Below are positions 40,999 to 53,994 of a stretch of 64,000 nucleotides of DNA, piece by piece; the first letter of the stretch is position 1; the number at the start of each line of letters is the position of its first letter. The DNA is taken from positions 41,915 to 105,914 of the forward strand of contig JAKAFN010000002.1 of assembly GCA_021825945.1 (NCBI GenBank). The letters are read 5' to 3'. Below the pieces are notes generated by a model. It was not told the DNA's origin and ran no database searches. It saw only the letters and a list, made by a program, of their open reading frames with translations. A program made the translations under genes and the position numbers. Origin of the DNA: Pseudomonadota bacterium (lineage in GTDB: Bacteria; Pseudomonadota; Gammaproteobacteria; Burkholderiales; Burkholderiaceae_F).

Positions 40999-41397
40999 CT
41001 ATCCGCCCGCGGCGCTCCGCCCGCCCCCGCCCACCGCCGCCACCGCCGTGGCCACCCAGCCCGACAGGAAGCAGAGCCCTCCGAACGGCGTGGCAAACCC
41101 GACGCCACGGGGAGCCCCCAGTGCCAGGGCATAGAGGCTGCCGCTGAACAGCAGGATGCCGCCAACGAAACAGCCGGCCGCGATCCGCGCCGCACGTCCG
41201 GCCCAGCGCTGCTGGGCCGAAGAAACGAACAGCAACGCGAGCGCATGGATCATCTGATAGTGCGCCGCGGTCTGGTATACCGCCATCAGGTCCGGCGTCA
41301 GCCGGGCACGCAGGGCATGCGCACCGATCGCGCCGGCGGCAACGCCCACGAATCCAAAAACGGCACCCGCCAGTGCGGAAAAACGGGAAGAATCCAT
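40999..41397 (-). CDS. DUF423 (YgdD/TMEM256) small membrane protein
   Basis: GVAAGAIGAH, QTAAHYQMIHAL, LFSGSLY, ATPFGG. Confidence 0.87.
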   Translation of the reverse strand: MDSSRFSALAGAVFGFVGVAAGAIGAHALRARLTPDLMAVYQTAAHYQMIHALALLFVSSAQQRWAGRAARIAAGCFVGGILLFSGSLYALALGAPRGVGFATPFGGLCFLSGWVATAVAAVGGGGRSAAGG

Positions 41398-41639
41398 GCC
41401 CCAGTCCAGTCGCATCGGAATGATCCCGGCATTTTCTCCCAACTCGACCGCGGTCGGCGCACCCGGGTCCGGACACCGCCCCCGCATCGGCAGCCTCGCA
41501 ACGTCCTCGGCAAGAATCATCGAGGATCCCGTGCCGAAACCCGCCACCTCGTCATGCGTGTCGCACATCAGCGGGATCGATTGGGCCGCACAACACCATG
41601 GGGAGCACCCGGCGCTCAGGTCGCGCAGCGCAACCATGG

Positions 41640-41690
41640 AAAAAAGAGCGGTCCCAGGCCCGAACTTTGGAGGGGATCGGCCCCGGGACC
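41640..41690 (-). terminator. Intrinsic terminator-like hairpin with U-tract
   Basis: Minus strand GGTCCCGGGGCCGA, 13-nt loop TCCCCTCCAAAGT, TCGGGCCTGGGACC, then GCTCTTTTTT. Confidence 0.62.
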
Positions 41691-41745
41691 ACGACGACCC
41701 CAGGTGGTGAGGGTCATGCGTCGCCCGCAACAAACAAGCAAACTA
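41640..41745 (-). ncRNA. Candidate ~100-nt small RNA or attenuated leader divergent from nsrR
   Basis: Bounded by a predicted promoter and terminator. Has a U-rich 5' end, two hairpins and a C-rich loop. No convincing RBS or ORF. Confidence 0.4.
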
Positions 41746-41817
41746 GATGTATCTTATATGAAATCTCCGGCATTCGCAAATGCAAATACCAATCATAAGA
41801 AATCTATGCATTACATC
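41746..41817. promoter_or_regulatory. Two NsrR-like boxes
   Basis: GATGTAT-CTTAT-ATGAAAT (41746-41764) and GAAATCT-ATGCA-TTACATC (41799-41817) versus consensus GATGYAT-N5-ATRCATC. Each has one near-perfect and one weak half. Located directly upstream of nsrR. Confidence 0.5.
41751..41779 (-). promoter_or_regulatory. Sigma70-type promoter, minus strand
   Basis: TTGCGA (41779-41774), 17 nt, TAAGAT (41756-41751) in an AT-rich stretch. Confidence 0.55.
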
Positions 41818-41901
41818 TTTTTGGGAAAGCCGGAACTCGACTCCAACGACCGCCCCATCGGAAGGAGCGGCAAACCGGGGAAATCCTGCTAGGCTGCTCG
41901 C

Positions 41902-42399
41902 ATGCAACTTACGAGATTCACGGACTATTCTCTTCGCGTACTGGTCTACCTGGGCGCCCACCCCGAGCGGCTGTGCACGATCTCGGAAATCGCAGAGAGC
42001 TACGGCATCTCGGAAAACCACCTGATGAAGGTCGTCAACCGCCTGTCCACGGCGGGATACATCGAGACCCTGCGCGGAAAGGGCGGCGGGATGCACCTGT
42101 CGCGCGCACCCAAGCTGATCAACATCGGCGACGTCGTGCGGCACATGGAAGATCGCCTCGACATCGTCGAATGCTTCAACGCCGAGCACCAGGACTGTCC
42201 GCTGCTCCCCGCCTGCACGCTGAAGTCCGTGCTGTCCGACGCGCGACGCAACTTCATGGCGACGCTCGACCGACACACCCTGCAGGACGTCCTCGGCAGC
42301 GGCATGAGCGGCGTATTCGCCGTCGCACGGACGACACGGATCTCCCCCCAGATTCCGGTCCGCCAAAAGAAACGGGCCGAGAATCCGCTGGCGGATTGA
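41902..42399 (+). CDS. nsrR: Rrf2 family regulator, NsrR-type (NO-sensing Fe-S repressor)
   Basis: MQLTRFTDYSLRVLVYL, NHLMKVV, RGKGGG, three Cys ligands (ECF...DCPL..AC). Confidence 0.82.
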   Translation: MQLTRFTDYSLRVLVYLGAHPERLCTISEIAESYGISENHLMKVVNRLSTAGYIETLRGKGGGMHLSRAPKLINIGDVVRHMEDRLDIVECFNAEHQDCPLLPACTLKSVLSDARRNFMATLDRHTLQDVLGSGMSGVFAVARTTRISPQIPVRQKKRAENPLAD

Positions 42400-42434: not shown

Positions 42435-42470
42435 ACCGCCCCTCTTCCGCCGCGGCGGAAGAGGGGCGGT
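42435..42470. terminator. 36-bp perfect palindrome between convergent nsrR and amtB
   Basis: ACCGCCCCTCTTCCGCCGCGGCGGAAGAGGGGCGGT is its own reverse complement; 7 nt from the amtB stop. Confidence 0.75.
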
Positions 42471-52767: not shown

Positions 52768-53994
52768 TCAGAACTTGTAGAGCCCCTCCAGTGCGAACGA
52801 CACCATGGTGTTATTGCGCGTTCCCGACGACTCCAGGAACACGGCATTGCTGGCATGGTCGCCGCGCACTTCGGCACGCAGTTCGACGTGCTCCGTCTTC
52901 AACCAAGACAGCGTGGCGGTGAACTCGCGGTAGGTCGTCGACTGGCCGGCGTAAGGTTGGGCCGGATCGATACAAGCCCCACCGGACGCACAGCCGGCCG
53001 TGCCCAGGAAATGGAAGCCGTTGCGGTCCTCGAAGTTCTCGCCCCGCAACGCCAATCGCCACTGCGGCGTGAACAGATAGGTGGCATACAGTGCAAAACC
53101 GTCGTACCGCGCCAAGACGGGGGTCGCTCCGGTATAGGCCTGATAATTGTCCTGGCTGACATTCAAATATTCGGCGCCGAAACTCAGCGGATCACTGACG
53201 GTGTAGGTCACCACGGCATCGAAGCTGTTGCGCTCACCATAGGGCCCCTTGGCGTCGGCCTCGGCAGGCGTCGGAACGGCGTTGGCCGTGGACAGCGCCT
53301 GTCCGTTGAGATCGGATAGCGTGATGCTCAACGCCTTCGTCGGCGTGATCACCGTCCCGAACTCGATCGTTTTCGCAGGAGTCGTGGCCGAGACCTGATC
53401 CCAGCCGTTGTTGACGCCGCCGATCCAGGTGATCTCGTCATTTTCGACGTAGGTAAGGCGAACGCCGGTATGGGTGAACGGCACCGCGCCGAAAAGGATC
53501 GAGCGCGACGTATTGTTGTTGGCCGGCGCCCAGATCACCTCGTAGCTTTGCAAGGTGGTGAACTTTCCGGCGATCACCGTGAACGGGCCCGAGGCGTACT
53601 GCCCGTAGGCCTGCGTCACGTCGAACTGATTATTACTTGGGCCGGTGTTGTAGGGGTAGGACGAGAAGATCGACGAATCGGAACCGGCCATCACGTTGAT
53701 CAGGCCACCGAAACCCTCTTTCGGCTGCTTCGCGATCTGTAGCGCCGCCTGGTTCAACGTGAAGGAATTCTGTTGCGTGGTGAATACCCGAACGGCGGAA
53801 GGATTCGTGCGGTCGATATATTTGTACGAACCGTCCAGATAACCGCTGACGGCGATCCCGGACGCACTCAGGATCTTGTCTATCGTTGCCGGGACATCCG
53901 TAGTGGTTGGTCCCGTCTGGTCCTCCGCAAACACCAAGCCCGGCGTGAGCAGCGCAAGCGCCACACTCGCAGCCCGCAGCGTGCGATCAAGCAT
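52768..53994 (-). CDS. Outer-membrane beta-barrel porin (putative BBP2/OmpL-like family), paralog A
   Basis: Signal peptide, AKQPKEGFG, QAYGQY, AGKFTT, THTGVR, NNGWD, C-terminal EGLYKF. Confidence 0.8.
   Translation of the reverse strand: MLDRTLRAASVALALLTPGLVFAEDQTGPTTTDVPATIDKILSASGIAVSGYLDGSYKYIDRTNPSAVRVFTTQQNSFTLNQAALQIAKQPKEGFGGLINVMAGSDSSIFSSYPYNTGPSNNQFDVTQAYGQYASGPFTVIAGKFTTLQSYEVIWAPANNNTSRSILFGAVPFTHTGVRLTYVENDEITWIGGVNNGWDQVSATTPAKTIEFGTVITPTKALSITLSDLNGQALSTANAVPTPAEADAKGPYGERNSFDAVVTYTVSDPLSFGAEYLNVSQDNYQAYTGATPVLARYDGFALYATYLFTPQWRLALRGENFEDRNGFHFLGTAGCASGGACIDPAQPYAGQSTTYREFTATLSWLKTEHVELRAEVRGDHASNAVFLESSGTRNNTMVSFALEGLYKF

Follow-up and report, generated by a model that had tools for sequence, protein, structure and literature searches.

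The DNA between nsrR and a DUF423 gene of an uncultured betaproteobacterium from acid-mine-drainage metagenomes contains a credible candidate for an unannotated RNA gene. The element was found in a 64,000-nucleotide stretch of DNA, referred to here as the window, and is known from five haplotypes of one uncultured species-level betaproteobacterial clade. Our preferred reading, to which we give an even chance, is a stand-alone NsrR-repressed small RNA (sRNA) with anti-Shine-Dalgarno loops that is divergent from nsrR. The element has the generic features of a terminator-ended sRNA: a promoter-like site of its own, an intrinsic terminator, no conserved open reading frame (ORF), and a conservation exceeding that of its flanks.

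The contig of the window is also present in the MAG GCA_027444425.1. The nsrR gene (41902–42399, plus strand) encodes a 165-residue NsrR-like repressor of the Rrf2 family. The protein matches the Pfam Rrf2 family at 2e-38, and its top NCBIfam match is the NsrR equivalog with 143 bits, which is below the model cutoff of 182 bits. Homologues of the protein carry the name NsrR in their sources, and transcripts of nsrR are present in metatranscriptomes at 8–47×. The genes amtB-glnK are convergent with nsrR, which is separated on its opposite side by 504 nt from the DUF423 gene (40999–41397, minus strand; Pfam DUF423, 2e-25). A perfect 16-bp G+C-rich hairpin, with a U tract on neither strand, is located between the convergent amtB and nsrR (42435–42468). 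The approximately 55 nt preceding the nsrR start codon (41847–41901, plus strand) are near-invariant in all haplotypes, with two to three differing positions that all adjoin the ATG, and may constitute a structured 5′ UTR of nsrR. This segment contains GGAAGGAG about 30 nt 5′ of the start, which is too distant to act as the Shine-Dalgarno (SD) sequence of nsrR, and an in-frame TAG, which rules out a longer NsrR.

Anatomy of the predicted RNA and its promoter

The predicted RNA is about 105 nt long and extends from a putative start site at 41744 (±2 nt) to 41640 on the minus strand. The GU-rich 5′ segment (41741–41721) forms a weak, invariant hairpin of eight pairs, four of which are G-U, with a mean unpaired probability of 0.43. 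Hairpin 1 (41717–41694, −10.4 kcal/mol) has seven pairs, all invariant, and carries the C-rich loop UCACCACCU at 41710–41701. The terminator hairpin T1 (41692–41648, −31.2 kcal/mol) is composed of a G+C-rich stem of 15 bp, divided into 11 and 4 bp by a 1×1 internal loop, and of the loop UCCCCUCCAAAGU at 41676–41664, within which CCCCTCC occupies 41675–41669. The U tract (41645–41640) consists of six residues in the window and of seven to eight in other haplotypes. Unpaired probabilities are 0.88 for the UCACCACCU loop and 0.94 for the UCCCCUCCAAAGU loop. T1 was overlooked by a terminator scanner because its loop is 13 nt long and the scanner accepts loops of up to 8 nt.

The minimum free energy of the 105-nt RNA is −50.7 kcal/mol, and that of the complementary strand is −36.2 kcal/mol. 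A 121-nt stretch has a folding z-score of −2.6, and none of 200 shuffled sequences was as stable. All three hairpins form on the minus strand only; the G-U pairs of the helices are A-C mismatches on the plus strand. The minus strand is therefore the functional one, since the helical G-U pairs and a U tract 3′ of the stem are found only there. A search of the window and of haplotypes L016 and L001 with Rfam 15 (cmscan, gathering thresholds) gave no relevant match, and relaxing the limit to E≤10 for positions 41400–41910 yielded only a chance snoRNA match.

The promoter-like site P1 on the minus strand is formed by the −35-like hexamer TTGCGA (41779–41774) and the −10-like hexamer TAAGAT (41756–41751), 17 nt apart. 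The TTGC core is kept in four haplotypes and TATAAGAT is invariant across haplotypes, while the spacer varies. P1 agrees with the consensus at 8 of 12 positions and was thus not listed by a promoter scanner with a threshold of 9 of 12. A sigma-54-like TGGTAT-N5-TTGCG in the window was dismissed, as it is missing from the other haplotypes.

Boxes of the form AAGATGyAT-N5-ATrCATCTT precede nsrR in about 60 other species, mostly 80–170 nt before the ATG. A PWM was trained on boxes located 5′ of nsrR in other genera, the training sites of which score 22.4–40.1 bits. The highest-scoring site in the 64 kb is box B (41733–41755; minus-strand reading AAGATACATCTAGTTTGCTTGTT), with 21.4 bits; its counterparts score 21.4 bits in L016 and 24.1 bits in L001. 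Box B takes in the greater part of the −10 and the predicted start site, and reaches ~11 nt into the RNA. It lies at −147 to −169 from the nsrR ATG, in agreement with box positions in related genera, at the place of the operator that relatives share with nirK or truncated-haemoglobin genes, and may be common to both divergent promoters. Box A (41797–41819; minus-strand reading AAGATGTAATGCATAGATTTCTT) lies some 94 nt 5′ of the nsrR ATG and scores 20.4 bits, compared with 12.5–13.6 bits in L001 and L016; the block is kept in the haplotype alignment. The next non-overlapping site in the 64 kb reaches 5.8 bits, the window background amounts to at most 8.2 bits, and shuffles of the A+T-rich region matched in composition have their 99th percentile at 14.4 bits. 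Both boxes score slightly under the weakest training site, each combining one near-perfect arm with one weak arm. Judged against background, shuffles, and training sites, boxes A and B are real outliers, yet not strong sites.

All features listed in the original prediction, which had been made from this DNA and described a non-coding, structured, terminator-ended unit divergent from nsrR, are present where it placed them. The fold, the strand, and the non-conservation of ORFs bear that description out, and the promoter TTGCGA-17-TAAGAT, the NsrR-like box over its −10, and the hairpin with a C-rich loop were recovered as described above. The DUF423 ORF, which had been placed ~245 nt beyond the terminator, lies 243 nt after the U tract. 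The 5′ stretch noted as U-rich corresponds to the GU-rich, weakly hairpin-forming segment. One detail needed revision: the terminator, correctly assigned a tract of six U residues, has a stem of 15 rather than 14 bp.

We hypothesize that P1, as a sigma-70-type promoter, starts transcription near 41744. Holo-NsrR is predicted to block RNA polymerase because the NsrR-type operator includes the greater part of the −10 as well as the predicted start site, and nitrosylation of the Fe-S cluster of NsrR by NO would release P1. The resulting transcript of ~105 nt would fold into the weak GU-rich 5′ hairpin, the second hairpin, and the strong intrinsic terminator with its tail of 6–8 U residues. The exposed loops UCACCACCU and UCCCCUCCAAAGU, which are similar to 16S rRNA at its anti-Shine-Dalgarno end, would then pair with ribosome-binding sites of the GGAGG type and lower translation during nitrosative stress.

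Distribution and sequence constraint

An NsrR-based scan of GTDB species representatives provided 80 nsrR loci, which were searched with blastn and with the covariance model R1. Only two of them, L001 and L016, at an NsrR identity of 97–98%, have the intergenic DNA in common, and neither method found the element in the other 78. R1 also matches L088 and L089, which are the window's own assemblies, L090 and L092, both of the L016 type, as well as L091 and L093. DNA contigs from four further studies are all of the L016 type. The pattern of the two loops with free stems was found at six loci of JGI metagenomes, none of which matches R1, so that we regard them as chance matches; blastn against a plasmid collection gave no match to the element.

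The next NsrR relatives are at most 83% identical, and the position of the element is occupied in them by a nirK-type multicopper gene with a cytochrome c gene, or by a truncated-haemoglobin gene with a reductase gene. Both nirK and truncated haemoglobin are classical NsrR targets. The intergenic DNA on the nirK side of these relatives has no detectable similarity to the element. Three loci with NsrR homologues of 80–83% identity were considered as more distant carriers and rejected: L093 belongs to the same clade and contains sequencing errors, and L094 and L095 possess nirK and match R1 through a generic terminator only. L090 combines an NsrR protein exactly that of the window with an RNA element of the L016 type, which indicates recombination between strains at the nsrR locus.

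Within the clade, the limits of the conserved block coincide exactly with the start site and the U tract in five haplotypes, and the promoter spacer and the DNA 3′ of the terminator have accumulated many substitutions and indels. A comparison of L016 with L091 gives 1 difference in 100 positions of the RNA body, against 40 in 300 four-fold sites (13%) of the adjacent gene (P=1e-5). Other pairs of haplotypes have 4–7 differences per 100 nt at a four-fold divergence of 0.10–0.17. The branch leading to the window carries three changes per 100 nt, which is indistinguishable from the neutral rate and gives no sign of constraint since the deletion described below. Seven of the eight variable columns are unpaired, and the eighth is a change from C-G to U-G within T1 that leaves the pair unbroken (P=0.005); 29 of the 30 base pairs never vary. 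Since no pair has undergone a compensatory double change among the haplotypes, the structure is supported by avoidance of paired positions and not by covariation. The haplotype comparison, with a near-invariant body between diverged flanks, shows that the RNA body is under purifying selection. The hairpin conservation that had been proposed as a check, pursued with the covariance model at nsrR loci, holds within the one species-level clade; it does not extend beyond it and is not accompanied by compensatory changes.

The PAS-GGDEF-EAL neighbour and alternative explanations

In L016, L001, and L091, the element is directly followed by a co-oriented gene for a PAS-GGDEF-EAL protein of c-di-GMP turnover; L092 is of the L016 type and L093 of the L091 type. 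The gene is intact in L091 (642–2750), where it encodes a PAS-PAS-GGDEF-EAL protein of 702 residues and is followed by DUF423. In L016 (764–2524), it encodes 587 residues after the in-frame loss of one PAS domain. The copy in L001 (796–2506) is split over three reading frames, and its sequence suggests either ongoing decay of the gene or MAG consensus errors. A search for orthologues of the GGDEF-EAL gene, aimed at its linkage with the element, found that identity falls from 92% directly to 57%, and intermediate relatives are therefore absent. In L016, the region 3′ of the gene (1–735) is unrelated to the other haplotypes and lacks DUF423. It contains a 34-nt inverted repeat (312–345 and 522–555), has no Rfam or tRNA match, and is covered in one metatranscriptome by contigs of 114–300× that differ at ~9% of positions.

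In the window, the homology to L016 and L091 detected by blastn and tblastn after T1 stops at 41571, and a deletion scar occupies 41571–41476 of the minus strand. Of the PAS-GGDEF-EAL gene that was lost, the final ~17 codons persist at 41526–41476. The deletion removed ~2.2 kb, and a second one removed ~0.46 kb before DUF423 (L091 496–2683 and 2731–3191, respectively). Exact DNA contigs from four runs span the junction at 45–143×, and the deleted form is thus real. The undeleted form coexists with it as a minor variant in two of the four runs (~5.5×, against ~94× for the deleted form). DUF423 was accordingly moved beside the RNA element by deletion, and the earlier idea of an attenuator for DUF423 loses its basis. 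Public gene calls stretch DUF423 to 212 residues across the scar. The accompanying remark that no such protein gene is present here is true of the window; four related haplotypes, however, have the PAS-GGDEF-EAL gene directly downstream. What endures of the first interpretation as an NsrR-repressed sRNA is the structured non-coding unit, the NsrR-type operator, the selection, and the C-rich unpaired loops, but neither the DUF423 option nor conservation outside the clade.

In L016, T1 is separated from the start codon of the GGDEF-EAL gene by two further elements, namely a second terminator-like hairpin with CUUUUUG (2642–2618) and P2, a promoter-like TTGACG-18-CATCAT (2599–2570). Both lie in blocks that are kept in L001 and L091. 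The minus-strand segment L016 2599–2559, likewise kept in L001 and L091, belongs to the 5′ region of the GGDEF-EAL gene; it comprises the block GTTTGACGTAATACAATC and, after it, the hairpin ACTCCG-N10-CGGAGT, and probably serves the gene as its promoter and UTR element. The SD region of the gene, UUGGAGG or UUGGGGG, is complementary over 7 bp to CCUCCAA of the terminator loop. By its sequence, this complementarity would fit either masking in cis or an adjacent target in trans.

Among assembled metatranscriptome contigs, one touches the element. It is 170 nt long, has a depth of 2.7, and matches L016 2610–2779 exactly, beginning in the T1 loop and extending 130 nt beyond the U tract to just past the second terminator; no assembled contig covers the 5′ half of the element. 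Such contigs are strandless and may include DNA carry-over, and small RNAs are lost in standard libraries, so that the 170-nt contig indicates at most some read-through of T1. A search of the start regions in the window with the loop seeds returned two candidates only, with chance-level weight. The BBP2 porin gene (52768–53994, minus strand) encodes an OmpL-like β-barrel protein of 408 residues, and its SD sequence TGGAGGGGA (54004–53996) is perfectly complementary to the terminator loop over 9 nt, which makes it a putative target with a lead of roughly chance-level weight. Whole-RNA duplex predictions against the start regions of the window were discarded, as their energies are meaningless for G+C-rich sequence. 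A point against the sRNA reading is that chance matches to an anti-SD loop are expected at many ribosome-binding sites.

In the main rival reading, the element is an attenuator or 5′ leader for the PAS-GGDEF-EAL gene, with P1 driving the gene and T1 acting as a regulated premature terminator, the loop of which might mask the SD of the gene in cis; the window copy would then be a relic of the deletion. We consider this rather unlikely. The leader would explain why the element is directly 5′ of the gene and in the same orientation in relatives, the contig that crosses T1 to about the second terminator, the 7-bp match between SD and loop, and a substitution rate on the window branch that is not below neutral. 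It is harder to reconcile with a terminator as stable as T1 (−31 kcal/mol, U6–8), for which an antiterminator search found the best alternative pairing to be ~20 kcal/mol weaker and no antiterminator to be conserved. A leader would also be separated from its gene by the second terminator-like hairpin and by a separate promoter-like site, and no riboswitch or leader family of Rfam, c-di-GMP-I and c-di-GMP-II included, matches even at E≤10. The element is independent of its neighbour: the gene has been shortened, frameshifted, or deleted among the haplotypes, and the element has stayed near-invariant. The strength of T1, the much weaker alternative fold, and the persistence of the element while the protein gene decays thus favour an independent RNA gene.

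Still less probable, and in our view improbable, is a functionless remnant consisting of the NsrR-controlled promoter of a lost nirK or haemoglobin gene and a terminator, with the similarity among haplotypes explained by a sweep or by recent recombination instead of selection. The near-invariance of exactly the transcribed interval in five haplotypes, between sides that have diverged with indels, and the avoidance of paired positions by substitutions (P=0.005) argue against a remnant, as does the lack of detectable similarity to nirK-side intergenic DNA of relatives. The restriction of the element to one clade, the missing covariation, the presence of nirK or truncated haemoglobin at the equivalent position in related genera, and the recombination at the locus in L090 would all be compatible with it. 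Finally, the window does contain ORFs that could be taken for a small protein gene, namely minus-strand ORFs of 33 and 41 codons from 41717 and 41741, respectively, and a plus-strand ORF after GGTGAGG; the minus-strand ORF was even called by a gene caller in L093. The 33-codon ORF had been noticed before, together with the missing ribosome-binding site, and indeed no SD precedes the minus-strand ATG. Each of the six substitutions in the minus-strand frame alters the encoded residue, the different tract lengths T6, T7, and T8 lead to different frames and C-termini, and the similarity of the plus-strand ORF ends after ~10 codons in L016. The element has no coding potential that is conserved among haplotypes, and we regard the small-protein explanation as extremely improbable.

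Comparison with known systems

The preferred reading, a stand-alone NsrR-repressed sRNA, has a close functional parallel in RoxS/RsaE, an NO-induced sRNA that uses unpaired C-rich regions to bind Shine-Dalgarno sequences and so prevents the initiation of translation (PMC4409812). The element resembles this RNA of Bacillus and Staphylococcus in its unpaired C-rich loops, similar size, and terminator end, and induction by NO is predicted for it as well. It differs in having no sequence or structure homology in Rfam, even at E≤10. RoxS is activated by the two-component system ResDE/SrrAB in Firmicutes, whereas the betaproteobacterial element has an NsrR-type box on its promoter. The cuckoo/CcsR/alpha-r14 (NfeR1) RNAs are stress-responsive sRNAs composed of two to four adjacent hairpins, each with the anti-Shine-Dalgarno loop CCUCCUCCC (PMC4615179). 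Adjacent hairpins with anti-Shine-Dalgarno loops are shared with our element, but CCUCCUCCC is in neither of its loops, a DUF1127 context is missing, and the RNA has no Rfam match.

In E. coli, NsrR reportedly affects sigma-E-dependent sRNAs through an NsrR-RpoE interaction and without robust promoter binding (PMC12249550). Both cases link NsrR to sRNA; the present element, unlike those of E. coli, has an operator-like box over its promoter. The back-to-back arrangement of an sRNA gene and the gene of a signal-sensing regulator, with shared operator DNA, is familiar from oxyS/oxyR, gcvB/gcvA, and sgrS/sgrR of enterobacteria. However, NsrR is a repressor, unlike the activators OxyR, GcvA, and SgrR; the RNAs themselves are not related, and the regulation described here is predicted.

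To our knowledge, the NsrR regulons described to date consist of protein genes, and our literature search found no description of an sRNA whose promoter bears an NsrR operator. We tentatively propose, at somewhat less than even probability, that the element is the first sRNA to be repressed directly by NsrR at its promoter, that it replaces a gene for an NO-detoxifying protein, and that its two anti-Shine-Dalgarno loops silence selected mRNAs under nitrosative stress, with the c-di-GMP enzyme and the BBP2 porin as candidate targets. The scope of such a finding would be narrow, as the element belongs to one uncultured clade and the mechanism of sRNAs with anti-SD loops is familiar. If the proposal is true, the RNA would extend the NsrR response to the post-transcriptional level. 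The canonical NsrR targets beside nsrR, which are nirK, truncated haemoglobin, and hmp, occupy the same position and have the same type of operator as the element, whose unit is without a protein; the divergent partner gene of the regulator would thus have been exchanged for an RNA gene.
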